From contig JBBRYN010000001.1 of assembly GCA_038237645.1 (NCBI GenBank), positions 40,101 to 104,100 on the forward strand: a DNA stretch of 64,000 nt, read 5' to 3'. The notes under the pieces are model-generated. The model did no database searches. It was not told the origin of the DNA and was given only the letters and a program-made list of their open reading frames with translations. Positions 3,746 through 52,141 of the stretch are shown in pieces. The translations under genes were made by a program, and so were the position numbers. This stretch comes from Mycobacteriales bacterium. GTDB lineage: Bacteria > Actinomycetota > Actinomycetes > Mycobacteriales > QHCA01. The stretch's first letter is position 1. Each line of letters opens with the position of its first letter.

Positions 3746-3819
3746 TTCTGCCCTCTTCCCCGATGTCCTGATCGCTTGGTCAGCCAGACGCTACCGGGCA
3801 TTCGTGGCATTCTCACCCA

Positions 3820-34796: not shown

Positions 34797-36274
34797 CCCG
34801 GGACCTGTGCTGCCGGCCGCTCGCGGCGCAGCCTGCGCACCCCGACGACGGCCAAGTAATAGACGAGGCCGACCAGCACGATCACGTCGACAGCCACGCC
34901 CGCCGGCTGGGTGGCCCGCGCCAGGTTGTAGCCGTCCGGCAGCACCAGGAAGCAGAGGGCAGCACTGGTCGTCACTATCATCGTTCGCGCTCGACCCGTG
35001 ATGCCGGCCGCCGCGAGCACCGCGACTGCCCAGGTCACGTACCACGGGTGCACCGCCGGACCGAGCGCCACGACCGCGAGCAGCGCCCAGCCACAGCCCT
35101 CGACGGCCGGCCGGATCCCACCCAGCCGGGCGGCCCGGATCCACAGCCACCCGCAGATGACGGCCATCACCGCGAATCCGATCCCCCGGGTGACCGCCAG
35201 CGCGGTGGGCGAGCCGCCCAGCAGGAGGCCGAGACCGGTCGGCAGAGACGTCCACTGCTTGCTGATCCCGACGGTGTGGACCGTGCCCACCCAGCCGTAG
35301 CCCAGCCCGCTCACCGCCGTGACGACGACGAAGGTCGCGCCGGCGACGAGAATGGTGGCGGCGACTGCCTGGGCCAAGGGCTGCCGGCGGCCCGGCAGCC
35401 GCTGCATCCACAGCAGCGCGACGAACGGCAGCGCCACCGCCGCGGTGGCCTTGACCGCCACTGCCAGGGCGCAGCGGACAGCGCCGGCCGCCGGTCGCCG
35501 GCCGGCGGCCATGGCGAGGCCCGCCACCATCAGCCCGACCATCAGTGCGTCGGCGTGGGCGCCCCCGACGAAGTGCGTGAGCACGAGTGGGTTGACCAGC
35601 CCCAGCCACAGGGCGTCCCGCTCGTCGGCGCCGCAGGCCCGGGCCGCCCGTGGCAGCGCCCAGGCCAGCAGCACCGTGCCGGCGATGGCGAGCACCCGCA
35701 TCCCGGCCACCGCCAGGGCAAGGGAGTCACCGGAGCCGGCCACGACGAGGCGGGCCAGCCCCAGGAAGAGCGGTCCGTAGGCGAACGGCACGTGCAGCCA
35801 GGAGGTCGACGTCGACGGGACCCAAGGAGAGGCGAGGTCGGCGGCGCCGTGGGAGTAGGGATTGAGCCCGGCCCGCAGCATCTGCCCGGCCACGGCGTAG
35901 CCGTACACGTCACGGCTCAGGACGGGCGGGACGAAGATCAGCGGCAGTGCCCACAGCGCGGCCGTCGTGCACAGCCAGCGGGGGGTCAGCCGGTCGAGCA
36001 GGCGGCGGAGCAGCAGCCAGGCGACCACCAGCAGTGCCATGCCGACGATCGACACGGCGATGCACAGGATCCGGCCCACGCCGCCGCGCAGCGTGGCGAG
36101 GATGACCGTGTCGCGCAGGGGATCCGGTCGCGGGAGGACACCGGCGCCCAGCGCCCCGAGCGCCAGCAGGACGGCGCCTCCGGTCCCCAGCAGCCGTACG
36201 CGGGTCGGGCTGCCCTGAATGCGCACCGGCTCATGCTGCCACGCCGGTCTCCGGCGGGCGGCGATCACACCCAT
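34793..36274 (-). CDS. Polyprenol-phosphate-mannose-dependent alpha-(1-6)-mannosyltransferase-like membrane protein (GT87/DUF2029, MptA/MptB-like)
   Basis: 493 aa with ~12 TM segments. GT-C style loop VYGYAVAGQMLRAGLNPY. Position equivalent to mptA between idsA2 and Rv2175c in Mtb. Confidence 0.75.
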   Translation of the reverse strand: MGVIAARRRPAWQHEPVRIQGSPTRVRLLGTGGAVLLALGALGAGVLPRPDPLRDTVILATLRGGVGRILCIAVSIVGMALLVVAWLLLRRLLDRLTPRWLCTTAALWALPLIFVPPVLSRDVYGYAVAGQMLRAGLNPYSHGAADLASPWVPSTSTSWLHVPFAYGPLFLGLARLVVAGSGDSLALAVAGMRVLAIAGTVLLAWALPRAARACGADERDALWLGLVNPLVLTHFVGGAHADALMVGLMVAGLAMAAGRRPAAGAVRCALAVAVKATAAVALPFVALLWMQRLPGRRQPLAQAVAATILVAGATFVVVTAVSGLGYGWVGTVHTVGISKQWTSLPTGLGLLLGGSPTALAVTRGIGFAVMAVICGWLWIRAARLGGIRPAVEGCGWALLAVVALGPAVHPWYVTWAVAVLAAAGITGRARTMIVTTSAALCFLVLPDGYNLARATQPAGVAVDVIVLVGLVYYLAVVGVRRLRRERPAAQVPG

Positions 36275-36286
36275 GCGGGCCGGCGG

Positions 36287-37798
36287 TCAGCGCCGGGCAC
36301 GAGAACGGTAGGCCGGGTCCGGGCCGGTGATCCGCTCCGCGGCCAGCCGGCCGGAGATCAGCACCATAGGCACGCCGACGCCGGGCTGGGTGCCCGAGCC
36401 GGCGAACACCACGTTGTCCAGCCTGGGTGCCAGGTTGGCCGGCCGGAAGGGGCCGGTCTGCCGGAAGGTGTGGGCGGCGGCGAAGGGCGTGCCCATCGCC
36501 AGCCCGGCGGCCTGCCAGTCGGCCGGCGTCACCGCGTGCTCGACCTCGACGGCGTCGCCGAAGCCGACATATCCTCTGGCCTCCAGGACGGCCACCACCT
36601 CGTCGCGGTACCTCGGCCCGACGGCCTCCCAGTCGATGCCCGCACCGGTGTGGGGTGTCGGCACGAGCACGGAGTAGGTCTGCCTGCCGGCCGGTGCCAG
36701 CGACGGATCGCTGCACGACGGGTTGGTGACCAGCAGCGAGGGATCGCTCATCAACTGCTGACGTCCGATCAGCTCGCCGAAGGCGCCACGCCAGGAGCGT
36801 CCGAAGTGGATGGTGTGGTGGGCGGTCTGCCGATATACCGCCGAGGAGCCGGCGTGCAGCAGGAAACACGACGGCGAGTAGCGCAGCCGCGCGACGCGCC
36901 TCGGCGCGGCCCGCGGTGGCAACAGTGCGCCGTAAGCGACCGGGAGGTCAGCATTGAGCACGACCACGTCGGCCGGTATCCGCTCACCCGTAGCCGTCAG
37001 GACGGCCACCGCCCGGCCGCCGATGACCTCCACCTGGACCACCTCGTTGTCGTAGCGGAAGGTGACACCGTGCTTTTCCGCGGCGCCGGCCAGGGCGAGC
37101 GGCACACTGTGCATGCCACCACGCGGGAAGTAGACGCCGGCCACCGAGTCCATGTAGGCGATGACCGCGTAGCTGGCCAATGCGTCGTACGGCGAGAGCC
37201 CGGCGTACATCGCCTGGAAGGAAAAGACCCGTTGCAGGCGGGGATCGGGCAGGTATGACGCGACCTTCGGCGCCAGCCGCCGGAAGCCACCCAGCATGAG
37301 CAGGTGGAGCAGCCGCCGGCTGACGAGGTCGATCGGGGAATCGAGATTGCGGTCGATGAAATCCTGAAACTGCACCCGGTAGAGCCGGGACACGAAGGCG
37401 ACGAATCGCAGGTAGCCGGCCGCGGCGGCCGGGCCGCAGACCCGTTCGACCTCGGCGGCCATCTCGCCGGGGTCGGCCAGCACGTCGAGCCGCGAGCCGT
37501 CGGGGTAGCAGGCCCGGTAGATCGGGGAGATCGGCTCCAGGTCGAGCCAGTCCGACAGCCGCTCGCCTACGCAGTCCAGCGCGTCGGCGATCAGGTCGGG
37601 CATGGTGAGCACCGTCGGGCCGGTGTCGAAGGTGTATCCACCGACCGTCAGCCGGCCGGCCCGCCCACCAGGCACCGCCGCGCGCTCCAGCACGGTGACG
37701 GCGCGGCCGGCGCCGGCCAGCCGCAGGGCCGCCGACAGCCCGCCCAGCCCGGCGCCGACCACGACGACGTGATCGGTCCGGCCGGCTACCGTCCGCAC
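36287..37798 (-). CDS. crtI: Phytoene desaturase
   Basis: FAD-binding VVVVGAGLGGLSAALRLA. CrtI family length. GTG 37798 lies 10 nt downstream of the crtE stop. Confidence 0.9.
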   Translation of the reverse strand: MRTVAGRTDHVVVVGAGLGGLSAALRLAGAGRAVTVLERAAVPGGRAGRLTVGGYTFDTGPTVLTMPDLIADALDCVGERLSDWLDLEPISPIYRACYPDGSRLDVLADPGEMAAEVERVCGPAAAAGYLRFVAFVSRLYRVQFQDFIDRNLDSPIDLVSRRLLHLLMLGGFRRLAPKVASYLPDPRLQRVFSFQAMYAGLSPYDALASYAVIAYMDSVAGVYFPRGGMHSVPLALAGAAEKHGVTFRYDNEVVQVEVIGGRAVAVLTATGERIPADVVVLNADLPVAYGALLPPRAAPRRVARLRYSPSCFLLHAGSSAVYRQTAHHTIHFGRSWRGAFGELIGRQQLMSDPSLLVTNPSCSDPSLAPAGRQTYSVLVPTPHTGAGIDWEAVGPRYRDEVVAVLEARGYVGFGDAVEVEHAVTPADWQAAGLAMGTPFAAAHTFRQTGPFRPANLAPRLDNVVFAGSGTQPGVGVPMVLISGRLAAERITGPDPAYRSRARR

Positions 37799-37808
37799 GC
37801 GGCAGGCC

Positions 37809-38930
37809 CTAGCCCTGCCGCGCGGTCGCGGCGACGGCGAGGTCGCGCAGCACGCCACGCGCCTCCTCGTCGATGTCGGCCAGTGCCAGCGCGGTCAACG
37901 ACTGCTCGGCCCGTTCGCTGATCAGCCGCTCGCTCTGCGCCAGCGCCCCGGTCTCGGTGATGACCTCGCGCAGCGCGGCGACCCCGCCGGCGGACAGGTG
38001 CGGGTCGCCGAGATGGCCGCGGACGAGTGCCGACTGGCGGGGGTCGGCCCGCTCGAGGGTGAGCGAGATCAGCACGGTGCGCTTGCCCTCGCGCAGGTCG
38101 TCGCCGGCCGGCTTGCCGGTGGCGGACGGGTCGCCGAACACCCCCAGTACGTCGTCGCGAAGCTGGAATGCCTCGCCCAGCGGCAGCCCGTAGGCCGTGT
38201 AGGAGGCGAGGACATGCGGCGGGGCGCCGGCCAACGCGGCCCCGAGGTGCAGCGGCCGCTCGATCGTGTATTTGGCGCTCTTGTACGTTGCCACCCGCAT
38301 CGAGCGTTCCGTGGCGGAGCCACCAATGACATCCGTGGCGGAGCCACCAATGACATCCGTGGATGCCCCCCCCACGGCCTGCTCGAGCACGTCGAGGTAC
38401 TGGCCGGCCATCAACTCCGTCCGCATCACGTCGTAGACCGGTTGCCCGCGCTGCAGGACTTCGGCGGGCAGCCCCGAGGTGTTGTAGGTCTCGTCGGCCC
38501 AGATGAGGCACAGGTCGCCGAGCAGGATGGCCGCGGACTGCCCGAACGCCTCCGGGTCGCCGCGCCAGCTCTCGGTGCGGTGCAGGGAAGCGAAGCGGCG
38601 GTGCACGGCGGGCGCCCCACGCCTGGTCTCCGACCCGTCCATCACGTCGTCGTGGATCAGGGCGCAGGCGTGCAGCAATTCCAGCGCGGCAACCGCCGCG
38701 ACGATCTGGTCGTTGTCGCCGCCGCCTGCCCCGCGCCAGCCCCAGTAGCCGAAGGCCGGCCGCAGGCGCTTGCCGCTGTCGAGCAGAAAGTCCGAGAGCG
38801 CGTCGGCGACCGGGCCCAGGTCCACGCTGATCGCGTCGAGCCGGTGGCGTTGCCGGGTCAGGATGGCGTCGATCGCCTTGGTGACGCGGGCACGGAGGTC
38901 GACTCTGTCGACCGGACTCTCTGCTGTCAC
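37809..38930 (-). CDS. crtE: Geranylgeranyl diphosphate synthase (polyprenyl synthetase)
   Basis: FARM LIHDDVMD and SARM-like FQLRDD. Contains an in-frame 24-bp tandem duplication (GGSATDVI x2). Confidence 0.9.
   Translation of the reverse strand: MTAESPVDRVDLRARVTKAIDAILTRQRHRLDAISVDLGPVADALSDFLLDSGKRLRPAFGYWGWRGAGGGDNDQIVAAVAALELLHACALIHDDVMDGSETRRGAPAVHRRFASLHRTESWRGDPEAFGQSAAILLGDLCLIWADETYNTSGLPAEVLQRGQPVYDVMRTELMAGQYLDVLEQAVGGASTDVIGGSATDVIGGSATERSMRVATYKSAKYTIERPLHLGAALAGAPPHVLASYTAYGLPLGEAFQLRDDVLGVFGDPSATGKPAGDDLREGKRTVLISLTLERADPRQSALVRGHLGDPHLSAGGVAALREVITETGALAQSERLISERAEQSLTALALADIDEEARGVLRDLAVAATARQG
38311..38362 (-). repeat. Perfect 24-bp tandem duplication (gtggcggagccaccaatgacatcc x2, plus partial third copy) inside crtE
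   Basis: Read directly from the sequence. In frame. Encodes a duplicated octapeptide. Confidence 0.95.
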
Positions 38931-38969: not shown

Positions 38970-39920
38970 ATGCCCATCCTCGGCCCGGCACTACGCTTCG
39001 GATCCATGGCACTCGGATCGGCATCGACGCTGCCCAGGACCGCCGCGATCAGCGACCTGCTGGCCGCCGGCGGGCGCTCGGTGTCCTTCGAGTTCTTTCC
39101 CCCCAAGACCGACCAGGGGGAGCGGCAGCTCTGGCAGACGCTGCGCGACCTCGAACGCCTGCAGCCGACCTTCGTCTCCGTGACGTACGGCGCCGGTGGC
39201 GGCACCCGGGACCGTACGGTCGGCATCACCGAGCGCATCGCGACGGACACGACGCTGACCCCGGTGGCGCACCTTACGGCCGTCAACCACTCGGTGGCGG
39301 AGCTCCGCCGGATCATCGGCCTCTACGCGTCCGTGGGCGTGCGCAACGTGCTCGCCCTGCGCGGCGACCCGCCGGGCGACCCGCAGGCCGAGTGGCTGGC
39401 ACACCCGGAGGGGCTCGCCTACGCCGAGGATCTCGTCCGGCTGATCCGCCACTCCGGCGACTTCTGCGTCGGGGTGGCGGCCTTCCCGGAGAAGCACCCG
39501 CGCTCGCCCGACCTCGACTCCGACATCCGCTACTTCGTGCAGAAGTGCCGTGCCGGCGCCGACTACGCGATCACCCAGATGTTCTTCCGGGCCGACGACT
39601 ACCTGCGGCTGCGCGACCGGGTGGCGGCCGCCGGCTGCGACATCGCGATCCTGCCCGGCATCATGCCGGTCACCAACGTGCAGCAGATCGAGCGCTTTGC
39701 CGTCCTCACCGGGGCCGAGTTCCCCGCCGATCTCGCGCAGCGACTGCACGCGGTGGAGGACGACCCGGAGGCGGTGCGGGCGATCGGTGTCGAGGTGGCC
39801 ACCGACCTGTGCCGGACACTGCTGGAGGAGGGCGCGCCGGGCCTGCACTTCATCACCCTCAACCGGTCGACGGCCACTCGCGAGATCTGGGCGCGGCTCG
39901 CACTGTCCGACCGCGACTAG
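38970..39920 (+). CDS. metF: 5,10-methylenetetrahydrofolate reductase
   Basis: SFEFFPPKT...VTYGAGG MTHFR signature. Confidence 0.93.
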
Positions 39921-39924
39921 CGGC

Positions 39925-40593
39925 ATGCGCGTGCTGCCCGACCGGGACGGCTACTTCACGCTGTGGTCCGGGCTGCACGGCGGGTACGACCCCCGCGCGG
40001 CGTTCTGGCCGCGGACCTGGCTGACAGTTTCCTACTACTGTGCCCGGCCGCTGGCCCGGCTCGGTGTCGCGCCCCACGTGTTGACCGCGGCCGGCGGGCT
40101 GACCAGCGGGGCGGTGGCCGGGGTGGCCTGGCTCGGCGGCCGCTGGGCGCTGCTCGCTGTCATTGTCGTGCTTGCCTCGGGGCTGACCGACAGTCTCGAC
40201 GGCGCCGTAGCGGCGCTGACCGGCCGGGCTACGGCGTTCGGCTACGTCCTGGACTCCCTCGTCGACCGGCTCTCCGACGGCTCCTACCTGCTCGCGCTGT
40301 GGCTGGTCGGCGCGCCGGCCTGGCTCTGCGTGCTCGGCGGGGTGGTCACCATGTTGCAGGAGTATCTGCGTGCGCGGGCCGGCAACGCGGGCATGGCCGA
40401 GATCGGCGTCGTGACCGTTGCCGAGCGGCCCACCCGGGTGATCATCACCGCCGTCACCCTGTGCGCGGCCGGGTTGCTCCCGCGCCACGCCGGTGCAGCC
40501 GCTGCTGCCGGTGCGGCCGCCTGGCTGGTCGCCGGCACGATGGGCTTCGGCCAGCTGGCCGTGGCGGTGCGGCGTAGCCTCACCGGCGGGTGA
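39925..40593 (+). CDS. CDP-alcohol phosphatidyltransferase family protein
   Basis: DSLDGAVAALTG...D motif (DG-x2-AR-x8-G-x3-D type). Multiple TM segments. Confidence 0.75.
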   Translation: MRVLPDRDGYFTLWSGLHGGYDPRAAFWPRTWLTVSYYCARPLARLGVAPHVLTAAGGLTSGAVAGVAWLGGRWALLAVIVVLASGLTDSLDGAVAALTGRATAFGYVLDSLVDRLSDGSYLLALWLVGAPAWLCVLGGVVTMLQEYLRARAGNAGMAEIGVVTVAERPTRVIITAVTLCAAGLLPRHAGAAAAAGAAAWLVAGTMGFGQLAVAVRRSLTGG

Positions 40594-40652
40594 GGGGTGC
40601 CTATCGCTGACGAGTCTGGGTCGGCTGACCTGCGGACCTGCTGAAGGGTGGC

Positions 40653-41033
40653 TCACTGGTGCCGGTCCTCGATGACCAGCAGCCGGGCGCCAGCCTCGTT
40701 TTCGATGATGGTGCGGCGGGCGCGGTAGCTGCCGGGATGACGCGACAGGTGTTCTGGACTGGGAATGGCGACGGCCCGGACCTCTTGGCGGCGCAAAGCA
40801 TCCATCAGCGCGCAGAAGGCCGACCGTTCTGGATGGTCGTGAGACGGGTCGTACAGATCCGTGAAGACGTGCCCCAGCGTCAGGCCTTCCCGCTCGGCGT
40901 ACGAGTGGATTTCGGCTGCGAGCAGAGCACGCGTGTCCGGTGGATCGGCTGCCCATACCCGGAAGTAGCCGAGGATCAGCGGCCGTAGCCGACCGAAACC
41001 AGCGTCGTCGATTACGAAATCGGGCACCGTCAT
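40653..41033 (-). CDS. Hypothetical protein with resolvase-N-terminal-like sequence pattern but no catalytic serine
   Basis: 126 aa from ATG 41033. ILGYFRV...LTLGHVFTD...RRQEVRAVAIPSPEHLSR resembles a serine-recombinase catalytic-domain layout, with W in place of the nucleophile Ser. Low-confidence fold assignment. Confidence 0.35.
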   Translation of the reverse strand: MTVPDFVIDDAGFGRLRPLILGYFRVWAADPPDTRALLAAEIHSYAEREGLTLGHVFTDLYDPSHDHPERSAFCALMDALRRQEVRAVAIPSPEHLSRHPGSYRARRTIIENEAGARLLVIEDRHQ

Positions 41034-41205
41034 GGCGATGACGATCCGGTGACGTCCCGTGACCGGTCGAGGGCCGTTCGTGGGCGGCTTGCGGACCCAT
41101 CCGGGACCGGCCCCGGTCCCCAGTAGGACCAATGCTCGAGGCGCTTGCTCTTTGGATCCTGGGAGGTCAGCGTCAGACTGGACGTGTCGAAAGGAGTTGC
41201 GCACC

Positions 41206-42519
41206 ATGGCAGGTCGGGCTGCGACACCTCGCACGGTCCTGGAGCAGATGCTCTGGAAGCAGGACAGGACCTACGAGGAGTTGGCCTGCGACTTCGACGG
41301 GTTGGCACGCCAGATGGGCGAGCGGGCAACGATGAGCGCTCGGCACCTTCGGCGGCTGGCGTCGGGGCAGCGGTCGGGCACGACGCCCGTGACCCGCCGA
41401 GTCCTTCAACAGATGTTCGGCCTGCCCACCGGTGAGCTTCTTCAGTCGTTAGCCGATGGGCACGGCACTGTCACCTCAACGCCGGCCGAGGGGATCCTGG
41501 CCGACCCGAGCGAGCGAGAGTTGGTTGCCATGGCGGCGCAGCGCGCCCGCAAATTCACCCTGTCCACCAAGGCGACCGCGAGTGCTGAGTCCGTGGAGCA
41601 GGTCTATGACGATGTTCGGCGGCTGGCTGTCGCCTACCCTCGACACCCGCTGTCGGAAGTCCTCGCCACTCTCGTCCAGGTGCAGGACAGCACGTATGAA
41701 CTGCTCGAACATCGGCAACGGCCGCAGCAGGCGCGCGATCTGTACCTTCTTGCCGGGGTGGTGGGAGGCATGCTCGCCAAGGCCTCCCACGACCTGGCCG
41801 ATCCATATGCCGCTATGACCCAGGCCCGCGCAGCATTCCTGTGTGCGGACAACGCTGATCATGATGGTCTCCGCGCATGGTTGCGAGGCCTCCAGGCTCT
41901 CATCGCTTACTGGGCCGGTCGTCCAGCCGAGTCGGTCCGGTATGCCCAGTCGGGCGCCGAATACGTGGCCGAAGGGTATGGATCGGCCGGGGTGTGGTTG
42001 TCCTTGAGCCAAGCCCGTGGACTCGCCTCGCTCGGCGACCGGGAGGGCACCATGCATGCGATCCGTCAGGCGGAGGACGGCTGGGAAATGTTCCAGCCAG
42101 ATCAACTTGATGAGTTCGGTGGTATCTGCACATTCACTCGGTCGCGTCAGATCTACTACGCCGCGGACGCGCTCAGCTGGCTTCCCGATGAAGCCGTCCG
42201 TGCGGAGAACTACTCGGTCGAGGCCGTGCAGGCGTACAGCGACACTGACTCATCCGAGTGGGCGTTTGGCGATCAAGCCGGCTCGCACACGAACCTGGCC
42301 ATCGCCCAGATTGCTCGCGGGGAGCTGGACGGTGCCTATGAAGCCCTCGACCCGGTGCTTGGTCTCCCGCCGGGGCGACGGATCAATGGGATCATCCACT
42401 CCCTGCGGCGGGTGAACGACGCGCTGCGGCGATCGACGTCCGACGCGGACCGGGTTGTTGAGTTGCAGGAGGGAATCGAGGCATTCACTCGCACCCCGGT
42501 CGCGGCTCACCTGCGGTGA
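41206..42519 (+). CDS. XRE-family HTH regulator with C-terminal TPR-like domain
   Basis: AAGGAG SD 9 nt upstream of ATG 41206. N-terminal HTH-like region. ~300-aa helical-repeat C-terminus. Divergent from the 40653..41033 gene. Confidence 0.65.
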   Translation: MAGRAATPRTVLEQMLWKQDRTYEELACDFDGLARQMGERATMSARHLRRLASGQRSGTTPVTRRVLQQMFGLPTGELLQSLADGHGTVTSTPAEGILADPSERELVAMAAQRARKFTLSTKATASAESVEQVYDDVRRLAVAYPRHPLSEVLATLVQVQDSTYELLEHRQRPQQARDLYLLAGVVGGMLAKASHDLADPYAAMTQARAAFLCADNADHDGLRAWLRGLQALIAYWAGRPAESVRYAQSGAEYVAEGYGSAGVWLSLSQARGLASLGDREGTMHAIRQAEDGWEMFQPDQLDEFGGICTFTRSRQIYYAADALSWLPDEAVRAENYSVEAVQAYSDTDSSEWAFGDQAGSHTNLAIAQIARGELDGAYEALDPVLGLPPGRRINGIIHSLRRVNDALRRSTSDADRVVELQEGIEAFTRTPVAAHLR

Positions 42520-43139
42520 GCAGATGGGTTCGCACCCCGGTTCAAGTCCCCGGCCACCACGTCGTCCTGCGCGACTTCCGGCCCGACGATGTGGACGCTG
42601 CCCTTGCCGTGGTGGGCGACGACCGGGTAACACGATCGCTGTCCTTCGACAGCCGTGATCGAGATCAGGCAGCGGCCATGATCACCGGCGTGATTGACCG
42701 CGCGAGCCGGGACCCTCGTATCGAGTACTACCTGGCAATCACGCTCACTCAGACGGACGAGGCCATCGGTTTCGCCCGGCTGGGCCTCGACGGAGTTCAA
42801 GCGGCAAAGCTCGGCTACGCGATAGCCGCTGATCTCTGGGGCCGTGGGTACGCCACCGATGCCGCACGCACTATCGTCAGCTTCGGATTCCACGACCTCG
42901 GCCTGCATCGGATCAGCGCCGCAATCGGCCCCGACAACGCGCACTCGATCGCCTTGATTGAGCGGCTCGGTTTTGCGTACGAGGGCCGCATCCGGCACCA
43001 CGTCTTGACCAATGGAGTGTGGCGCGACAGCTTGCTGTACTCCGTTCTCGCCGAAGAGTGGGTCGTCGCCCAGTCGGGTCCGGCCGCCCCGGCCGGACCG
43101 GTGCTCAGCGCAGTGCCTCCGGCTGCCTCTGAGGGGTGA
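42516..43139 (+). CDS. GNAT family N-acetyltransferase (RimJ/RimL-like)
   Basis: Acetyl-CoA motif DLWGRGYATDAARTIVSFGF. 207 aa. Confidence 0.85.
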   Translation: MSRWVRTPVQVPGHHVVLRDFRPDDVDAALAVVGDDRVTRSLSFDSRDRDQAAAMITGVIDRASRDPRIEYYLAITLTQTDEAIGFARLGLDGVQAAKLGYAIAADLWGRGYATDAARTIVSFGFHDLGLHRISAAIGPDNAHSIALIERLGFAYEGRIRHHVLTNGVWRDSLLYSVLAEEWVVAQSGPAAPAGPVLSAVPPAASEG

Positions 43140-44836
43140 TCGTCGCCGGCGAGTTGTCCGCTGCCGGCGTGGCCGGTGAGCCGCTGGCGATCGTCGTCGT
43201 GCCGGGTGTCGGCCTGGCACTGGCCTGGGCCGGCGGCGAGCTGCAGGTGCCGACGCCCGAGCCGGCAACCGTCGTGCGCGATCTGGCGTCCCTGGATCCC
43301 CGGTGGACGTGGTGGTCGGCGCGGGCGACGGCGGCCACGCTGGTCGAGGCCGGAGTACGCCCGCGGATCTGCTGGGACCTCGGCGCGGTCGGACGGCTGC
43401 TGCACGGGCTGCGCCGCGACGACCCAGCGGCCGTGTGGGCCGCCGAGCACGGCCTGCCCGAGCCGCCGCTGCCCGCTGCGGCCCCCGACCTCTTCGACCT
43501 GGACGCTGGATCGGGTGGGCCGGTACGCGGCGACGGTCAGCTCAGCCGGGAGTGGCTGGCCGGAAGCTGGGCGAGCGGCCTCGACTCGGCGCAGCGCTGG
43601 GCCAGGCTGGCGATGGCGGTCCAGGGTCGCCAGGAGGCGGCACTGCACGCCTTGCCTGATTTCCGGCCGGGGCCCCGGCAGCCGCCACTGGCCTGGTTGA
43701 CCGCGTGCGCTGAATCGGCAGTGGCACTGTTGGCGGTGGAGCTCTCCCACGACGGGCTGCCGCTCGACCGGACGGTTTTCGCCGGGCTGCTGCGAGCCGC
43801 CATCGGCGAGCGGCCGGCGGATGCCGCTGAGCGGGCTGCCGGTCAGAGCGCCCGCGACGCGCTGGTGCTGCGGCACTTCGCCGGGCCGCCGGTCGACCTG
43901 CGCAACCCGCTGCAGGTGCGGGAGATGCTCGGCCGGGCCGGCTTCGACGTTCCGGACACCCGGTCCTGGCGCCTGCAGCCGCACGCCGCCACCAACCCGG
44001 GGATCGCGGCCCTGCTCGCCTGGCGCAAGGCCGAGCGAATTGCCACGACGTACGGCTGGCGCTGGCTGTCCCGGCACGTCGGCGAGGACGGGCGGCTGCG
44101 CGGGGGGTGGAACGCGGCCGACGGGGGATCCGGCCGGATGACGGCGGCGGCCGGGCTGCACAATCTGCCGGCGGTGCTGAGGACGGCCGTCCGTGCCGAG
44201 CCCGGCAAGATCCTGGTACGCGCCGACCTGGGCCAGGTGGAGCCGCGGGTGCTCGCGGCCGTCTCCGGCGACGCCGGGCTGGCACAGGCCGCCGGCGCGG
44301 ACGACATGTACGCACCGGTGGCAGCAGCGCTCGGCTGCGACCGGCCGACGGCCAAGGTCGCCGTGCTCGCCGCGATGTACGGCCAGACCTCGGGGGTCGC
44401 CGGCGCGGCGCTGCGCGACATGGACCGCGCCTACCCGCGGGCCATGGCCTACCTGCGAGCGGCAGAGGAGTCCGGGCGGCGGGGCCGGGACGTGCGCACC
44501 TACGGTGGCCGGCTGATCCCCCTGGCGCTGCCCGGGCCGGACGCCGCACCCGGCTACGGCCGCTACGCCCGCAACGCCGTCGTGCAGGGGGCGGCGGCTG
44601 AGCTGTTCAAGGCCTGGACGGCGACCGTCCGGGACGGTCTGCGAGTGATCGGCGGGGAGATCGTGCTGTGCCTGCATGACGAACTGCTGCTGCAGGTGCC
44701 ACGGCGACAGGCCGGCGCCACCAGGGAACTGCTCTCCGCAAGTCTGGACAGCACGACTCGCTGGTGGGCCGCCGGCAGCCCGGTGCGTTTCGTCGTCGAG
44801 GTGAGCTTCGGCGCCAGTTGGGCCGACGCCCACTGA
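43136..44836 (+). CDS. Minimal family-A DNA polymerase (PolA paralog lacking 5'-3' exo; degenerate exo-like N-domain)
   Basis: Motif A-like VRADLGQVEPRVLAAVSGD. Motif B RPTAKVAVLAAMYGQTSG. Motif C LCLHDELLLQV. GTGA overlap with GNAT stop. Confidence 0.75.
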   Translation: MIVAGELSAAGVAGEPLAIVVVPGVGLALAWAGGELQVPTPEPATVVRDLASLDPRWTWWSARATAATLVEAGVRPRICWDLGAVGRLLHGLRRDDPAAVWAAEHGLPEPPLPAAAPDLFDLDAGSGGPVRGDGQLSREWLAGSWASGLDSAQRWARLAMAVQGRQEAALHALPDFRPGPRQPPLAWLTACAESAVALLAVELSHDGLPLDRTVFAGLLRAAIGERPADAAERAAGQSARDALVLRHFAGPPVDLRNPLQVREMLGRAGFDVPDTRSWRLQPHAATNPGIAALLAWRKAERIATTYGWRWLSRHVGEDGRLRGGWNAADGGSGRMTAAAGLHNLPAVLRTAVRAEPGKILVRADLGQVEPRVLAAVSGDAGLAQAAGADDMYAPVAAALGCDRPTAKVAVLAAMYGQTSGVAGAALRDMDRAYPRAMAYLRAAEESGRRGRDVRTYGGRLIPLALPGPDAAPGYGRYARNAVVQGAAAELFKAWTATVRDGLRVIGGEIVLCLHDELLLQVPRRQAGATRELLSASLDSTTRWWAAGSPVRFVVEVSFGASWADAH

Positions 44837-44858
44837 TTGTTATTTCACTACCTTGCCA

Positions 44859-44883
44859 GTGCCGGACGACAGTATTCCGGCAC
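44859..44883 (+). terminator. Hairpin between convergent genes (GTGCCGGA-9 nt-TCCGGCAC)
   Basis: Perfect 8-bp inverted repeat in a relatively AT-rich spacer after the polymerase stop. Weak T-tract. Confidence 0.3.
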
Positions 44884-44925
44884 AGGTTTCCGGCACACTG
44901 GCCTCCGGCAGAAAGGTCAGCCGGT

Positions 44926-46437
44926 TCACGCGGGGCCGATCAGGCCCGCGGTGATCTGCGCCGAGAGCAGCACCAGCGGCAGCCCGCCGCCGGGATGCGC
45001 CGAGCCGCCGACCAGGAACAGCCCCGGCAGCGGGGCGCGGTTGGCCGGCCGCAGGAAGGCGGCCCGCGGGCCGTTGGACGACGTCCCGTAGATCGCCCCG
45101 CCCACCGACCGGGTCTCGCGCTGCAGGTCGGCGGGAGTGCGGACCTCGGTGAACATCAGCCGGTCGCGCACGTCGTGACCGCGGTCGGCCAGCACCTCCA
45201 ACAGCCGCGCGGCGTAGGACTCCGCCCGGCCCGGCGCCGTCCAGTCGATCGCGCCGACGATCCCGTGAGCCCCCGAGTCGGTGCCGGCGTAGTGCCGTGC
45301 TGCATTGACCAGCACGAACCATGCCTCGTGCCCGTCCGGCGCAGCGGCCGGATCGTCCGGCACGCTGACGTACAGGGTCGGGTCGTCCACCGGTCGCGCA
45401 GCTGCGCCGAAAACGGCGTCGAACTCGGCGTCGTAGTCGACCGGAAAGAAGACGTTGTGGTGCGCCAGCCCGCGCGTACGTCCCCGTACCCCCAACAGCA
45501 GGACGAACGCCGACAGCGAGGGAGTGGCCCGGCGCAGCCGTCGCGCTGCACGGGGCAGGTCCACCAGGCTGCCGTAGACATGTGCCGCGTCGACGTCTGT
45601 GACGACGACGTCGGCCGGCAGCCGGCCGCCGCCGGCGAGCACCACGGCACTGGGCCGCCCGGCGGCGTGCTCGATAGCGGTGACATCTGCCGACGTGCGC
45701 AGCGTCGCCCCCGCCTCGATGCAGCGGGCCTGCAGCGCGCCGACGATCCGGCGCAGGCCGCCGCGGACATACCAGCCGCCGAAGGCCAGCTCGGCATAAG
45801 GGACGGCGGCCAGTGCCGCCGGCGCGCGCCGCGGGTCGGAACCGGTGTAGGTGGCGTAGCGCTCCAACAGCATCCGCAGCCGCGGATCGCGCAGGTGGGA
45901 CCGCCCGAGACTGCGCAGCGTCCGCCATGGCGCGATCGCCAGCAGGTCGCGCACGTGCCGGCTCTGGCGGAGCAGCGCCGGCAGGCCGGCCACCGGTGCG
46001 GACAGGAACGGCCCCGACGCCGCGGCCCAGATCCGCTCAGCCCGGCGCCAGAGCCGGTCCCAGTCCGCGCCGGCCGAGCCGCCGAGGGTGGCCTCGATCC
46101 GTTGGCAGAACATCTCGTGGTCGGAGCAGGAGTCCAGCATCGTGCCGTCAGCGAAGCGATATCTGGCCACCGGATCCAGCGGTACGAGGTCGAGCACCGA
46201 CTCCAGCGGGTCACCAGTGACATTGAACAGGTCGCCCAGCACCTGCGGGAGGGTCAGCAGCGACGGGCCGGTGTCGAAGCGGAACTGCCCGGCCGGCGTC
46301 CCGGTGACGAACTCGCCGAGCTTTCCGCCGAGCGCCGTCGACTGCTCGCACACGGTCACGGTATGGCCCAGCGCCGCCAGCCGAGCCGCCGCCGCCAGGC
46401 CGCCCACGCCGCCACCCACGACGACGATCCGGCTCAT
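44926..46437 (-). CDS. crtD: Carotenoid desaturase of the CrtI/CrtD family (putative 3,4-desaturase)
   Basis: FAD motif IVVVGGGVGGLAAAARLA. Phytoene-desaturase-family length. In an operon with carotenoid-tailoring genes. Confidence 0.8.
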   Translation of the reverse strand: MSRIVVVGGGVGGLAAAARLAALGHTVTVCEQSTALGGKLGEFVTGTPAGQFRFDTGPSLLTLPQVLGDLFNVTGDPLESVLDLVPLDPVARYRFADGTMLDSCSDHEMFCQRIEATLGGSAGADWDRLWRRAERIWAAASGPFLSAPVAGLPALLRQSRHVRDLLAIAPWRTLRSLGRSHLRDPRLRMLLERYATYTGSDPRRAPAALAAVPYAELAFGGWYVRGGLRRIVGALQARCIEAGATLRTSADVTAIEHAAGRPSAVVLAGGGRLPADVVVTDVDAAHVYGSLVDLPRAARRLRRATPSLSAFVLLLGVRGRTRGLAHHNVFFPVDYDAEFDAVFGAAARPVDDPTLYVSVPDDPAAAPDGHEAWFVLVNAARHYAGTDSGAHGIVGAIDWTAPGRAESYAARLLEVLADRGHDVRDRLMFTEVRTPADLQRETRSVGGAIYGTSSNGPRAAFLRPANRAPLPGLFLVGGSAHPGGGLPLVLLSAQITAGLIGPA

Positions 46438-47474
46438 GGCACGGGCCGTCCCTTCCAGACCAGCTCACCCCGTCGCCGGGCCAGGACCGACCGCGCGGTC
46501 AGCCAGCCGAACAACAACACCGACACCGGATGGGCGCAGGCGTCGGGCCACACCCGTCCGCCGGTGCGCCGGGCGGTGATAGCTCGGCCAGCCACACCGG
46601 CGAGGTAACCGACCAGGCCGGCCCGCGACCCGCGCAGGGCGGCCAGCGGCGGCAGCACGTACACCGCGGTGAGAGCCGCGGCGACCGTGACCGCGCCGCC
46701 GCGCGAACCGAATGCCGCCCACAGCGACTTGGCGTAGCCGGCCGACAGATCGGCCCAGTTCTCATACATCGTGCAGCTCGCCAGCCACGTGCCGTCGACG
46801 ACACCGCCCACGCCACCGGTGGCCTTGACCGCCCGGAGCAGCGCCACGTCCTCGACCACCGCCGCCCGGACGGCGGCATGGCCGCCGGCCCGGTCGTAGG
46901 CCGTCCGCCGGACGGCGAGGAACTGGCCGTTGGCCGCGGCCAACGACGGTCGCGGCGACCGCTCGGCCAGCCGGAGCGGGAGGAAGGACAGCCACGACCA
47001 TTGCAGCAGCGGCTGCACCAGTAGCGGGGCCGGCCCGGAGGCGACCTGCCGGGGGTACGGGGAGATCAGATCGAGGCCGGTGCGCTGCAGCAGGTCGACG
47101 GCGGCCGAGACCGCGTGCGGTGAGAGCACCACGTCGGCATCGACGAACACCAGGACGGCGGCGGCCGGATCCGCGGCATCGGCAAGCTGCTGGCAGGCGT
47201 GCGGCTTGCCCAGCCAGCCGACCGGCGGCTCCCGCCCGGTGAGCAGTCTGGCGTCGCGGGTGATCGATCCGCGGGTCAGGGCGCCGCGGATCGCATCCGT
47301 GGTCCCGTCGGTGGAGCCGTCGTCGAGCACGACGATCTCCATCCGGTCGCCGGCCGTCTGCTGCAGCAGGGCGGCCAGGCACGGGCCCACCCGGTGCGCC
47401 TCGTCACGTACCGGCAACAGCACCGAGACCTTGACCCCGGGCGGCGGTGGCCGTGCCGACGGGCGGCGGAGCAA
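46434..47474 (-). CDS. Family 2 glycosyltransferase (carotenoid glycosyltransferase CruC/CrtX-like)
   Basis: VSVLLPVRDE and VVLDDGSTDGT GT-A motifs. ATGA overlap with crtD start. TTG/GTG start estimated. The long N-terminal extension in the ORF track overlaps the next gene and is an artefact. Confidence 0.75.
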   Translation of the reverse strand: MLRRPSARPPPPGVKVSVLLPVRDEAHRVGPCLAALLQQTAGDRMEIVVLDDGSTDGTTDAIRGALTRGSITRDARLLTGREPPVGWLGKPHACQQLADAADPAAAVLVFVDADVVLSPHAVSAAVDLLQRTGLDLISPYPRQVASGPAPLLVQPLLQWSWLSFLPLRLAERSPRPSLAAANGQFLAVRRTAYDRAGGHAAVRAAVVEDVALLRAVKATGGVGGVVDGTWLASCTMYENWADLSAGYAKSLWAAFGSRGGAVTVAAALTAVYVLPPLAALRGSRAGLVGYLAGVAGRAITARRTGGRVWPDACAHPVSVLLFGWLTARSVLARRRGELVWKGRPVP

Positions 47475-47539
47475 GGCGGCGTTGACCGCGGCATGCGCGG
47501 CGGCGCCTGCCGCAACGACGGCACACCACCGGACCGGCC

Positions 47540-48292
47540 TCACCGGCGCTGCCCGGCGATCAACGTCACGGCCAGCGGGACGGCGACCACCCCCATCGCC
47601 GCGGCACCCCACACCGCCGAGCCCGGCAGCCCGAAGAAGCACGCGTGCCCGGCGACCGAGGACGCGTAGGTCCACAGGTACAGCGTGATCGGCACCGCGT
47701 CCGACGGCGAACGTCGAGCGGGCAGCAGGAGTACGAGGAGTAGGCCCATCGTGCCGGCGACGGCCAGCCAGCCGGCGTAGTTGGACACCGGCACATGCGG
47801 CACGCCGGGCAGCGCGGGCTGCGGGTCCACCCATCGCCAGTGGCCCGCACCGACCATCTGCGGGTCGAGAAACAGGTCCCAGGTGGCCAGTGCCAGGCCG
47901 GACAGCAGCCCGTGCGCGAGCCGGCGCGAGGTCAGCCGGCCGGCCACCACGTACGCCGGGTAGGCCATCATCGTCCAGGCCAGCGGGACCACCAGCGGCA
48001 CGCCGGCGACCCCGGCTCCCAGGCCGCCGGTGTAGGAGTAGCGCCCGAACGGGATCCCGGTGGCCACCCCGATCGCCTCGGCAAGCAGTCCTCCGGCGGC
48101 GGTGACTGCGACGAAGACGGCCGTCCAGCGGGCTCCCCGCGTCGCCGCGGCATGGGTAACTGAGGCAAGAAAGAAGCAGCAGACCGTGGTGACCGTCAAC
48201 GGGGAGCGCAGCGGCTCCCTGACGAGCGGGTAGGCGATCTCGGTGAGCACGGTGAGCGCCGCCGAGCCGGCGGCGGCCCGGCGACCCACCAC
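47540..48292 (-). CDS. cruF: Carotenoid biosynthesis membrane protein (DUF422, CruF-like C-1',2' hydratase)
   Basis: Multi-TM protein with W/H-rich loops (HWRWVDP, SNYAGW), as in CruF-type hydratases from recall. Start approximate (GTG 48292 or 48289). Confidence 0.55.
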   Translation of the reverse strand: MVGRRAAAGSAALTVLTEIAYPLVREPLRSPLTVTTVCCFFLASVTHAAATRGARWTAVFVAVTAAGGLLAEAIGVATGIPFGRYSYTGGLGAGVAGVPLVVPLAWTMMAYPAYVVAGRLTSRRLAHGLLSGLALATWDLFLDPQMVGAGHWRWVDPQPALPGVPHVPVSNYAGWLAVAGTMGLLLVLLLPARRSPSDAVPITLYLWTYASSVAGHACFFGLPGSAVWGAAAMGVVAVPLAVTLIAGQRR

Positions 48293-48303
48293 GGCGACCC
48301 GGC

Positions 48304-48852
48304 TCAGCGACCCGCCCTGGGCAAGCCGTCGAGGGGGAGGGTGCGGGCCAGCACCCCGAAGCGCCTGGTGTCCCCGGCGAACCGGTGGTGCCGCCGGAGG
48401 TCGACGAAGTCGAGCCGGCGATACAGCCGCCAGGCCCGCGACTCGCCCTCGGGGGTCGACAGCACGACCGTGGCATGCGGGCACCCGTCGAGGAGGCGGG
48501 CGAGCAGCCGCTGGCCGATTCCGTGTCCCTGCTGGTCGGGCCGCACGTGCAGTTCGCAGACCTCGAATGGGTCGGTCAGCCACCGCGCCGCGACCTCCTC
48601 GTCGAGGTCGCGGCGCACCTCGTCGTGCCACCACTGGCCGGGTGCGCCTCGATAGCCGTACGCGAAGCCGATCACCTCCCCCGATTCGTCCAGCGCGCCG
48701 GTGGCCCGGAAGCCGTTGCGCTGGGTGTGCACGACGACGTACCCCTTACGTTGCCGTCCGGTTTCCGCCGAATAGCCCATGGCCGCGCAGTAGATGTCGA
48801 GCGCGGTGTCGAGATGGTGCCGCAGATCGGCGCCCGACCAAGTGACGATCAT
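48304..48852 (-). CDS. GNAT family acetyltransferase
   Basis: Acetyl-CoA motif QQGHGIGQRLLARLL. 182 aa. The start region is triplicated (see repeat). Confidence 0.8.
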   Translation of the reverse strand: MIVTWSGADLRHHLDTALDIYCAAMGYSAETGRQRKGYVVVHTQRNGFRATGALDESGEVIGFAYGYRGAPGQWWHDEVRRDLDEEVAARWLTDPFEVCELHVRPDQQGHGIGQRLLARLLDGCPHATVVLSTPEGESRAWRLYRRLDFVDLRRHHRFAGDTRRFGVLARTLPLDGLPRAGR

Positions 48853-48883
48853 CGGGTGACGATCATCGGGTGACGATCATCGG
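48842..48883 (-). repeat. 14-bp x3 perfect tandem repeat (gtgacgatcatcgg) spanning the GNAT start codon and the stop of the upstream gene
   Basis: Read directly from the sequence. Creates two upstream mini-ORFs (MIVTR-stop) ahead of the real GNAT ATG. Confidence 0.95.
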
Positions 48884-49584
48884 GCCAGCGGGTCGCGGCC
48901 GAAGAGGGTGCCGGAGCTGCTGACCACAGCGAAGCGGGCGAACAACTCCTCGGCGTACCACCGTTCCTGCGTCGTTCGCCGGACGACCTCGGTGTGAACC
49001 GGTCGACGGTAGGCGAAGTCGTGCAGCGAGTCGGCGTCGTCCCAGACGCTGAACGTCCCCTGCAGCCCGATCGGCAGCTCACCGATGCCCATGCTGACCA
49101 GCAATCCCGGACAGCGACGCAGGTCGGCGGACACCGGTGGCACGGCCCGCCAGAAGGCCAGCGCCCGCTGCGGGGCGAGGCGGGCCCTGGTCAGGGCCGC
49201 CACCGGGCCCTGCCATCGTGCGGGATAGGGCCGGCCGAACGGTTCCCGGCCGGACCACCGGCCGCGGGATGCCAGCGGCACCAGGTCGCCGCGCCACCGC
49301 TCCGTGGCGATCCGCCGCCATCGGGCGGCGCTCACGGAGCGTTCGAAGGCATCCGCGGCGTCCCGGCTGGCCCAGGTGCTCAACAGGGCCCACCGGGTCG
49401 GGTCGCTGTCGCGGACGGTGAACGTACGGCCGCTGCCGGTGCCCAGGAGCTTGGCAAACCGCAGGCCTGACATCCGGCGCAGCGGCCGGCGGCCCGCAGC
49501 CATCCGCAGCAGCGCGGCCGGCATGCGCCGCAGCGGCACCCGCCACACGTGCAGTGTGACCAGCGCCGGCACGGGCTCCATCAT
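48877..49584 (-). CDS. CrtA-like protein (spheroidene monooxygenase family), putative carotenoid oxygenase
   Basis: VTLHVWRVP...LRFAKLLGTGSGRTFT...STWASRDAADAF pattern resembles CrtA N-terminus from recall. Family assignment tentative. Confidence 0.55.
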   Translation of the reverse strand: MMEPVPALVTLHVWRVPLRRMPAALLRMAAGRRPLRRMSGLRFAKLLGTGSGRTFTVRDSDPTRWALLSTWASRDAADAFERSVSAARWRRIATERWRGDLVPLASRGRWSGREPFGRPYPARWQGPVAALTRARLAPQRALAFWRAVPPVSADLRRCPGLLVSMGIGELPIGLQGTFSVWDDADSLHDFAYRRPVHTEVVRRTTQERWYAEELFARFAVVSSSGTLFGRDPLAR

Positions 49585-49605: not shown

Positions 49606-50067
49606 TCAGATCACCTCGATCGACCTGCCGCCGGTGGGCCGCAGCAATTCGTCGTAGCTGGTGTCGAAGACGGCGTCGGGTGTGCCGGCGCCGCACCACA
49701 CGACCGGATAATTGGCAAGGGTGACGTCGACCGCGGTCCGCAGCGGATGCGGATGGCCGACCGGCGCCACGCCGCCGATCGGCTGGCCGGTCGCCTCGCG
49801 CACGTATTCCGCGTCGGCCTGCTCGAGCGGGGGCAGGTCGAGCAGCACCGAGACCTTGGCGGTATCCACCCGGTGGGCTCCGCTGGCCAGGACCAGGATC
49901 GGCTCGGTCGACCGGAAGATCAGGCTGTTGGCGATGGCGCCGATCTCGACGCCGAGCGCGTCGGCGGCCAGTGCCGCGGTCAGCGCCGCGATCGGCAGTT
50001 CACGTACGGCACCGGTGGCTCCCAGCGCTCGTAGCGCCGCCGCCACTCCCTCGGCATTGGGGTGCAT
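49606..50067 (-). CDS. YbaK/ProX-like aminoacyl-tRNA editing domain protein
   Basis: 153 aa. SLIFRS...GGVAPVGHP pattern of the YbaK deacylase family. Confidence 0.75.
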   Translation of the reverse strand: MHPNAEGVAAALRALGATGAVRELPIAALTAALAADALGVEIGAIANSLIFRSTEPILVLASGAHRVDTAKVSVLLDLPPLEQADAEYVREATGQPIGGVAPVGHPHPLRTAVDVTLANYPVVWCGAGTPDAVFDTSYDELLRPTGGRSIEVI

Positions 50068-50150
50068 GTCAACAGTTGAGCAGAACTACTCAGCTCCGTC
50101 GAGCAGCAGTCCGCAGGACCGGCCGCCGGGCGGCCGCAAGGGTTGTAGCC

Positions 50151-51589: not shown

Positions 51590-51605
51590 TCGAACATACG
51601 TTCGA
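51590..51605 (+). promoter_or_regulatory. LexA SOS box (TCGAAC-ATAC-GTTCGA), actinobacterial consensus
   Basis: Perfect match to TCGAAC-N4-GTTCGA within TTCGAACATACGTTCGAACA, ~180 bp upstream of the small-protein/dnaE2 operon. Confidence 0.8.
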
Positions 51606-51787: not shown

Positions 51788-52141
51788 GTGTGTGCATTGA
51801 CAAGGTTGTACGGCGATGCCGTTGACGACGCCGCCGAGGTGCGGCGGCGAGCCGACGAGCCTGAACAGTTCCTCTGGCGTGACCGGTTGTATCTCGTCCG
51901 GGCCGTGTTGGAGCACTGGATGGAGTCAGGAGGATGGTGGCGCACCGGTATGACGCGGGCGGCGCGCTCCGGTGCGCCTGCCGCTGGTGTGGACGGTGCG
52001 ACAGGCGGTGCACTCGACGACGGGGAGCGGGAGTTCTGGCGGGTCGAAGCCGGTGCCGGCCGGCTCGACGACACCGGGGTGTTCGACCTGTGCTTCGACT
52101 GGTCGCACGGCCAGTGGACCGTCGTCCGGGTGCAGGACTAG
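51788..52141 (+). CDS. Small conserved hypothetical protein (117 aa; possibly DUF6504-like) upstream of dnaE2
   Basis: W/R-rich motif FLWRDRLYLVRAVLEHWMESGGWWR. First gene downstream of the SOS box. Family name recalled with low confidence. Confidence 0.5.
   Translation: MCALTRLYGDAVDDAAEVRRRADEPEQFLWRDRLYLVRAVLEHWMESGGWWRTGMTRAARSGAPAAGVDGATGGALDDGEREFWRVEAGAGRLDDTGVFDLCFDWSHGQWTVVRVQD

Follow-up and report, generated by a model that had tools for sequence, protein, structure and literature searches.

Why should the gene of an acetyltransferase run directly into the gene of a DNA polymerase? The question is raised by a 64,000-nt stretch of DNA from a Mycobacteriales bacterium (assembly GCA_038237645.1, contig JBBRYN010000001.1, positions 40,101 to 104,100; hereafter the window), in which a gene for a RimJ/RimL-like GNAT N-acetyltransferase (42516–43139, plus strand; positions are those of the window) shares its last four nucleotides, GTGA, with the start of a gene for a family-A DNA polymerase (43136–44836, plus strand). 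The original prediction, made from the sequence of the window, took this coupling as a hint of acetylation-linked regulation. Our analysis points elsewhere: the polymerase is very probably a chromosomal repair enzyme of the APEX/PolA2 type whose gene was hit at its 5′ end by a foreign islet carrying an NsdA-like gene and the GNAT gene, and the GTGA overlap would be a by-product of the junction. The window has a GC content of ~71%, and its relatives, as judged by record title, are nearly all Actinomycetota.

The two reading frames themselves are not in doubt. The GNAT (207 aa) matches Pfam Acetyltransf_3 with 94 bits (cut-off 25), and the polymerase (566 aa) matches DNA_pol_A (PF00476) with 87.6 bits (cut-off 34.3). 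The junction reads ...GAGGGGTGATC..., where the TGA stop of the GNAT gene (43137–43139) overlaps the GTG of the polymerase gene (43136–43138), and both the open reading frames (ORFs) and the junction sequence bear out the overlap as it had been predicted. This GTG is the first possible start past an in-frame TGA 6 nt upstream (43130–43132), and homologues of the polymerase start at the same position with the N-terminal peptide xxxA[DE]ELSAAG; because of these matching N-termini and the nearby in-frame stop, the start is well supported. The NsdA-like gene likewise overlaps the start of the GNAT gene by GTGA (42516–42519), and 4-nt overlaps are frequent in the window (e.g., 4233/4236, 19914/19917, 46434/46437). 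The overlap between GNAT and polymerase is therefore real, yet by itself unremarkable.

A comparison with three close relatives, the loci L001, L002 and L088, revealed a break in synteny immediately upstream of the polymerase. Nucleotide collinearity (blastn) with all three ends at 40559–40573 and resumes at 43130–43143. From the synteny break, GC content and repeats, we delimit a lineage-specific insertion of ~2.53 kb (40600–43129) lying between a gene for a CDP-alcohol phosphatidyltransferase and the polymerase start. The transferase (CDP-OH_P_transf, 222 aa, 39925–40593, plus strand), whose PF01066 match was obtained on the identical call in the Logan assembly L089 and on the L088 orthologue, has a full-length translation and is 74–78% identical to its counterparts in L001, L002 and L088. 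An ORF at 39963–40577, considered as the gene after metF, was rejected as lying in the wrong frame, as the Logan call and L088 both give 39925–40593. The gene order in L088 is metF, transferase (222 aa) and polymerase (79% identical to that of the window), with a spacer of 24 nt between the last two; the spacer is ~112 nt in L001 (polymerase 77% identical), and the corresponding gap in the window is the ~2.53 kb of inserted DNA. In L002 (polymerase 76% identical) this place is taken by 2.6 kb of unrelated cargo that encodes an ABC transporter on the opposite strand. The presence of two cargoes in two related genomes suggests that the site upstream of the polymerase start is an insertion hot spot.

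The inserted DNA, which contains a small resolvase-like gene, the NsdA-like gene and the GNAT gene, differs from its surroundings in composition. Its GC content of 65.8% (flanks, 73.5%) lies below that of every 2.53-kb sliding window along the stretch, and the GC content at third codon positions (GC3) is 0.75–0.76 in its three genes (0.76 in the GNAT gene) versus 0.89–0.93 in neighbouring genes. The insert is also bounded by an imperfect direct repeat. The left copy, TGAGGGGTGCCTATCGCTGACGAGT (40591–40615, plus strand), starts with the stop codon of the transferase and represents the top direct-repeat family, D1; the right copy, TGAGGGGTGATCGTCGCCGGCGAGT (43130–43154, plus strand), holds the start codon of the polymerase. 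The copies lie 2539 nt apart and agree at 19 of 25 nt, including an exact stretch of 9 nt (TGAGGGGTG) that the window has nowhere else; no direct repeat in the region is stronger. When 2000 pairs of random 60-nt segments at the same spacing were used as a control, 78 reached 9 nt exact and 4 reached 19/25, with none reaching both. Aligned to the 5′ ends of the relatives' polymerase genes, the left copy resembles their first codons. Because it thus joins the transferase stop to polymerase-like first codons, the ancestral junction probably read transferase-TGA-GGG-GTG-polymerase. The independent Logan assembly L089 (SRR19962011), which may share the sample, repeats both gene order and overlaps, and the junction can therefore not be ascribed to an error of a single assembly.

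The cargo of L002 (L002:3398–5995; the site matches window positions 40573–43129) consists of minus-strand genes for a DrrA-like ATPase and an ABC-2 permease, and it too seems to be flanked by a short repeat, CAGGCT(G/A)G.

We propose the following course of events. The ancestral array of the lineage would have been metF-transferase-polymerase, and a foreign low-GC segment of ~2.53 kb would have integrated recently, in this lineage specifically, exactly at the start codon of the polymerase, leaving the imperfect 25-nt direct repeat. The GNAT frame would then have continued past the right junction until it met its first stop, and this stop by chance overlapped the polymerase GTG. The length of the GNAT can be viewed in this light: the median of its homologues is 186 aa, and the 207-aa protein of the window has a Pro/Ala-rich tail running to the first stop past the insert junction. 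As the frame crosses the junction in this manner, the apparent GTGA coupling may be regarded as a by-product of the insertion. The Acetyltransf_3 domain is complete, with the acetyl-CoA loop WGRGYATDA. The NCBI gene call begins at Met55 and gives 153 aa, cutting off part of the domain, whereas the Logan call gives the full 207 aa; because the domain match starts at residue 16, the 207-aa call is preferred.

No promoter of its own, no terminator and no well-spaced ribosome-binding site was seen for the polymerase, which is therefore probably expressed now from the NsdA-like/GNAT unit, by read-through or re-initiation. A scan of 39800–45100 gave no sigma-70-like promoter, but scans of this kind say nothing about actinobacterial promoters; a single terminator-like site (44819–44832) was seen in the interval, at the 3′ end of the polymerase gene and at chance level.

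If the GNAT and the polymerase worked together, their genes should be expected to travel together. We surveyed 83 loci, comprising 80 genome loci with relatives of the polymerase (49–77% identity) and three more with 10-kb flanks. Neither the GNAT nor the NsdA-like protein was found at any of the 80 genome loci (tblastn, E ≤ 1e-5), and a hidden Markov model (HMM) of the GNAT, built from 60 sequences (that of the window and 59 homologues), matched nothing among the 7041 ORFs of the 83 loci at E ≤ 1. The upstream neighbour of the relatives' polymerase, assigned by Pfam at 64 loci, was 2-oxoglutarate dehydrogenase in 15 cases and DUF4229 in 8, besides many singletons, with no GNAT family among the 25 most frequent Pfam families listed. 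Being absent from all 83 loci with relatives, the adjacency of GNAT and polymerase is taken to be coincidental, as the original prediction had itself stipulated for a lack of adjacency in relatives. The idea of acetylation-linked regulation does not agree with this absence, nor with the position of the GNAT gene in a lineage-specific insert together with an NsdA-like partner.

In distant relatives (Nanopelagicales-like and others; e.g., L006, L010, L014–L016, L019, L024, L026), the polymerase gene most often follows the 2-oxoglutarate dehydrogenase gene, kgd/sucA, on the same strand. The kgd/sucA and DUF4229 neighbours have no evident link to DNA repair.

The recurrent partner of the GNAT is a different gene. 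The NsdA-like gene (41059–42519, plus strand) encodes an NsdA-family regulator of the tetratricopeptide-repeat-like type, 486 aa long from its first start (437 aa in the Logan call), which passes the NCBIfam model NF053720 over residues 61–471 (100.3 bits versus a cut-off of 75). Homologues of the GNAT (62–71% identity) lie directly downstream of homologues of the NsdA-like protein (46–62%) in L083, L084 and L090–L092; L083, from Actinosynnema, shows the pair with a 4-nt overlap, and L084 is a soil contig. No polymerase is present in the NsdA-like/GNAT loci L082–L084 and L090–L092. Because the pair recurs in actinobacteria without the polymerase, we regard NsdA-like/GNAT as a recurrent two-gene module, apparently mobile and often found in variable or mobile regions. 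GNAT homologues in contexts without an NsdA-like gene were also seen (L081, L093). As for the class of the GNAT, it shares the Acetyltransf_3 match and the size of RimJ/RimL-type enzymes but is no orthologue of RimJ, RimL or SpeG, scoring 21–52 bits against NCBIfam cut-offs of 184–218; the equivalog models of RimJ (52.5 versus 190 bits) and RimL (21 versus 184 bits) in particular were not reached.

In Micromonospora chersina (L090–L092) the pair lies near a RepSA gene (L090, positions 1–4558, and L091). Integrative conjugative elements of actinomycetes use RepSA as their replication protein. In L082 (2154–5609) the NsdA-like gene is truncated and the pair stands beside integrase and insertion sequence (IS) genes.

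The leftmost gene of the insert, which diverges from the NsdA-like gene, encodes a 126-aa protein resembling a resolvase N-terminal domain (40653–41033, minus strand). Its 26 homologues, the protein itself not counted, are 73–159 aa long, with a PF00239 match in 7, and form a family of short stand-alone proteins whose resolvase catalytic-domain signature is weak. Genes of this kind in L095 and near L083/L084 stand beside HTH_31/DUF5753 and DUF6879 genes. L095, the sole readable context of a relative of this gene, has no NsdA-like/GNAT pair, so the three genes of the insert are not a demonstrated fixed module.

What kind of enzyme, then, was hit by the insertion? The polymerase has more than 4300 homologues of ~560–610 aa, and all those with a named organism come from Actinomycetota. 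The named sources are Frankiales, Pseudonocardiales, Mycobacteriales and Motilibacter, to which genome records with relatives of the polymerase add Kineococcus, Actinopolymorpha and Pseudonocardia; two further homologues carry only the label "soil metagenome" or an unreadable label. An exhaustive search through 1.84 billion cluster representatives returned 168 clusters at E ≤ 1e-30. The best NCBIfam model is PRK14975.1-1 (NF011538), "bifunctional 3′-5′ exonuclease/DNA polymerase", and the alignment runs end to end, with residues 43–565 of the polymerase against profile positions 35–556 of 557. Because the score stays under the cut-off of the model, the clade is best placed by sequence as a sister to the curated NF011538 set rather than a member of it.

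The catalytic core could be mapped residue by residue. In the Protein Data Bank (PDB), the family profile matched Taq, Klenow, Bst and Mycobacterium smegmatis Pol I over the polymerase (pol) domain only. We aligned it by hhalign to the Klenow fragment of E. coli (from NC_000913.3), which gave the following equivalences (window polymerase = Klenow): D364 = D705 and E369 = E710 in the region of motif A; R403 = R754, K407 = K758, L411 = F762 and Y415 = Y766 in motif B; N480 = N845 and Q484 = Q849; H514-D515-E516 = H881-D882-E883 in motif C; and S332-G-R334 = T666-G-R668 at the "TGR" motif. Across 164 family members D364, E369, R403, K407, Y415, H514, D515 and E516 are almost invariant. Position B3 of motif B (Klenow F762) is Leu in 157 of the 164, including L411 of the window, and at the Thr position of TGR, 82 members have Ala, 52 have Ser, as does the window, and 15 have Thr. 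Compared with Taq or Klenow, the protein is shortened in the fingers region between motifs A and B and again past motif B. Because the catalytic residues are nearly invariant across the family, the polymerase is predicted not to be a dead homologue. PF00476 is the sole Pfam match over the 566 aa, with no 5′-nuclease domain, and the 64-kb window has no second family-A polymerase gene.

The N-terminal part of the protein was accessible mainly through its predicted structure. The AlphaFold2 model has a mean predicted local distance difference test score (pLDDT) of 86 and a predicted template-modelling (TM) score of 0.87, and it divides into an exonuclease-like (exo-like) domain (residues ~1–200) and a pol domain (residues ~200–566). 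Compared by Foldseek over its whole length with the large fragments of Pol I (Bst, KlenTaq, Klenow), the model gave TM scores of 0.62–0.71 over ~600 alignment columns, and the modelled N-terminal domain has the alternating strand/helix order of the DnaQ-like fold. In sequence searches, residues 1–215 gave one chance match only (HMM against the PDB), and the hhalign alignment of the family with Klenow starts only at residue 202; since these searches miss the region, the exo-like domain can be compared at the level of fold and by inspection only. Neither Asp nor Glu occurs in residues 16–26 (PLAIVVVPGVG), a stretch made up of strand 1 (16–22) and the beginning of the following strand. The same stretch has no acidic residue in 11 of 15 aligned relatives, the other four having a lone Asp or an ED pair past strand 1, and DxE occurs in none. 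By inspection, the Exo II-like position is V85, and the Exo III-like helix has A190-x-x-E193-S194 where Klenow has Y497-x-x-E500-D501. The only segment of the polymerase with pLDDT below 50, residues 116–126, is a disordered loop of the exo-like domain; here lies the peptide APDLF (codons 116–120, 43481–43495, plus strand), which resembles a clamp-binding motif, and in other members of the family, too, this loop repeatedly shows an xxLF peptide.

Much of what had been predicted for this protein from the letters of the window was thus supported. Motifs A, B and C are kept and all map to catalytic residues of Klenow, among them the two Asp residues of motifs A and C (D364 and D515, aligned to D705 and D882), whose loss would have meant an inactive homologue. 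There is no 5′-3′ exonuclease domain, and the N-terminal domain has the Klenow-like fold without DxE that is expected of a degenerate 3′-5′ exonuclease. Two of the proposed comparisons were successful in part: the mapping against Klenow covers the pol domain, with nothing aligned by sequence before residue 202, and a search for the DEDD residues established a strand 1 without acidic residues, while Exo II and Exo III were placed by inspection.

These features are closely similar to those of the APEX subfamily, described by Czernecki et al. in 2023 as actinobacterial and present alongside Pol I in the same organism (PMC10201439). In that subfamily the exo domain lacks DxE and has a sealed exo pocket, motif B has Leu at position B3, and the APEX 2 group (cluster 14) has Ala for Thr in TGR; the APEX of Streptomyces sp. 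CT34 extends primers in vitro, though with low processivity, and shows no real exonuclease activity, and deletion of the APEX gene in Streptomyces pointed to DNA repair (PMC10201439). A 2026 survey in Nucleic Acids Research calls the same group PolA2, reports that the disordered loop of the exo domain contains a clamp-binding motif, QxxLF (120-QSSLF-124 in S. coelicolor), and argues for a mutagenic repair role (PMC12926913). The polymerase of the window, which we compared with published descriptions, shares with APEX/PolA2 the relatives in Actinomycetota, a length of ~570 aa, the Klenow-like fold, the lack of a 5′-3′ nuclease and of DxE, the Leu at B3 and all catalytic residues of the pol domain. 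Around residue 120, in a disordered loop, it has an xxLF peptide reminiscent of the clamp motif, at a position that corresponds to that of QSSLF in S. coelicolor. Close relatives have AGR instead of TGR, as described for APEX 2. The polymerase itself differs in having SGR instead of AGR or TGR, in the loop peptide without the Gln of QxxLF, and in falling under the cut-off of PRK14975.1-1. Judged from these characters, it fits APEX/PolA2, as a member of APEX 1 or APEX 2 or as a sister clade. With the large fragments of Pol I (E. coli Klenow, Bst LF, KlenTaq, M. smegmatis Pol1 POL), it has in common the two-domain fold and the catalytic residues of motifs A, B and C, but its exo domain is undetectable by sequence, its fingers are shorter, F762 is replaced by Leu, and, unlike Pol I, it is encoded by a stand-alone gene without a 5′-nuclease domain. 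By analogy with APEX/PolA2, the enzyme most likely serves gap filling or damage tolerance with low fidelity and low processivity and would be recruited by the beta-clamp through the xDLF peptide of the loop.

Several observations do not sit easily with our interpretation. The Pfam Resolvase match of the small protein at the left end is weak (E = 4e-4, 21 bits, below the cut-off of 23.3), and no convincing terminal inverted repeats were found at the ends of the insert. As for the polymerase, its NF011538 score is 295.3 bits against a cut-off of 389, APDLF lacks the leading Gln of the clamp motif, and that carboxylates are missing from Exo II and Exo III is read here from inspection and from published descriptions of the subfamily. 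In addition, the polymerase has probably been co-expressed with the GNAT since the insertion, so a new regulatory dependence is conceivable. The insert might even be a small site-specific integrating element that targets the starts of APEX polymerase genes and places the polymerase under an operon of an NsdA-family regulator and a GNAT. Its resolvase-like gene, the 25-nt repeat that imitates the 5′ end of the polymerase gene and the other cargo of L002 would fit such an element. This reading we consider unlikely; if true, the output of the polymerase, and conceivably its acetylation, would follow a developmental or stress regulator in this lineage.

Other explanations were weighed against the insertion of a foreign islet. 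The NsdA-like/GNAT arrangement could be ancestral, with L001 and L088 having lost the segment by deletion between the direct repeats. Such recombination can delete DNA, and the comparison of the site depends on three close relatives; however, no 2.5-kb stretch of the 64 kb is lower in GC than the segment, whose GC3 is 0.75 versus ~0.9 in the flanks, L002 has its own unrelated cargo at the site, no more distant relative among the loci surveyed has the pair, and elsewhere the pair adjoins mobile-element genes. An ancestral arrangement is accordingly very unlikely. We find it slightly less probable still that GNAT and polymerase form a functional unit in which the GNAT acetylates the polymerase, at its N-terminus or at lysines, or a partner of it, with the coupling fixing the stoichiometry. 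Adjacency missing from every surveyed locus, a conserved partner, the NsdA-like gene, with which it is found in polymerase-free contexts, a location inside a low-GC, repeat-bounded insert, and the commonness of 4-nt overlaps in the window all stand against the points in its favour, namely that the overlap puts both genes in one translational unit, that the GNAT looks intact in its domain and acetyl-CoA loop, and that the arrangement is confirmed in an independent assembly.

The same low probability applies to the polymerase being an inactive homologue, a pseudo-enzyme or a scaffold. Its shortened fingers and stretch past motif B, the change of F762 to Leu and the lost proofreading site could be taken in that way, but the residues for catalysis and for binding of deoxynucleoside triphosphates are all kept and near-invariant in 164 relatives, and a member of the subfamily, the APEX of Streptomyces sp. 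CT34, extends primers in vitro (PMC10201439). Finally, the overlap could have been produced by assembly or gene calling, considering that the window probably comes from a metagenome-assembled genome and that the NCBI call of the GNAT has only 153 aa from Met55. This is the least probable of the explanations, because the Logan assembly SRR19962011, which may share the sample, gives transferase, resolvase-like, NsdA-like, GNAT and polymerase genes with the same overlaps, and the domain match from residue 16 favours the 207-aa call.

The polymerase gene had also been placed in a repair or mutagenesis neighbourhood, 8 kb from dnaE2 and dinB. The distance is right for the gene of the DnaE/DnaE2-type C-family polymerase (52577–56422), which starts 7.7 kb downstream of the APEX-type gene; the gene of the DinB-like Y-family (IMS) protein (57266–58573) lies further away, 12.4 kb downstream of the APEX-type gene and 844 nt after the DnaE2-like gene. 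The neighbourhood itself is real in the window, where the three polymerases together span 15.4 kb and a perfect actinobacterial LexA/SOS box, TCGAACATACGTTCGA (51590–51605), lies ~180 nt upstream of a DUF6504 gene (51788–52141) that precedes the DnaE2-like gene. Beyond the window, only the closest relative, L088, keeps the APEX-type polymerase close to DnaE2/DinB; L086, L087 and the flanking DNA of the remaining loci do not. Between the APEX-type gene and the DnaE2-like unit lies a carotenoid cluster on the opposite strand, and no LexA box comparable to that of the unit was found before the APEX-type gene.

The SOS-inducible DnaE2 cassettes of Actinobacteria have the form imuA′-imuB-dnaE2 or combine DnaE2B with a Y-family protein, ImuB being an inactive Y-family protein. 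The unit of the window resembles them in its DinB-like gene and in the perfect LexA box that goes with its DnaE2-like gene, but no ImuB was found, and the APEX-type gene stands outside the unit. Two candidates were discarded here: an ORF at 49971–51509 (512 aa), considered as ImuB/DinB, is a membrane protein with a Pfam match to Acyl_transf_3, and the sole LexA-like site near the polymerase, which has two mismatches and lies inside the GNAT gene (42530–42545), was judged to be a chance occurrence. In L088 a HEPN_SAV_6107 gene lies between DUF6504 and DnaE2.

Carotenoid genes flank the polymerase on both sides (33264–38930 and 44926–49584) in an array syntenic with L088, which annotates more genes at matching flank positions, including lycopene cyclase subunits. 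The flanks encode a polyprenyl synthase, CrtI/CrtD-like desaturases, a CruG-like glycosyltransferase and a CrtA-like monooxygenase, and a second GNAT gene (48304–48852) lies within the 44926–49584 flank. Elsewhere in the window, a 1131-aa protein (13858–17253, minus strand) partially matches a TOMM system kinase/cyclase fusion (210 bits versus a cut-off of 706).

For the annotation of this genome, the polymerase should be called an APEX/PolA2-type polymerase and neither "DNA polymerase I" nor a "bifunctional exonuclease/polymerase", and the GNAT is best read together with its NsdA-family partner. Beyond annotation the import of the locus is small; it is of modest interest for a site that has taken up two cargoes and for the recurrent NsdA-like/GNAT module. 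It also illustrates that a 4-nt overlap in a high-GC actinobacterium can stem from an insertion junction and is, alone, no sign of a functional link between the two genes.

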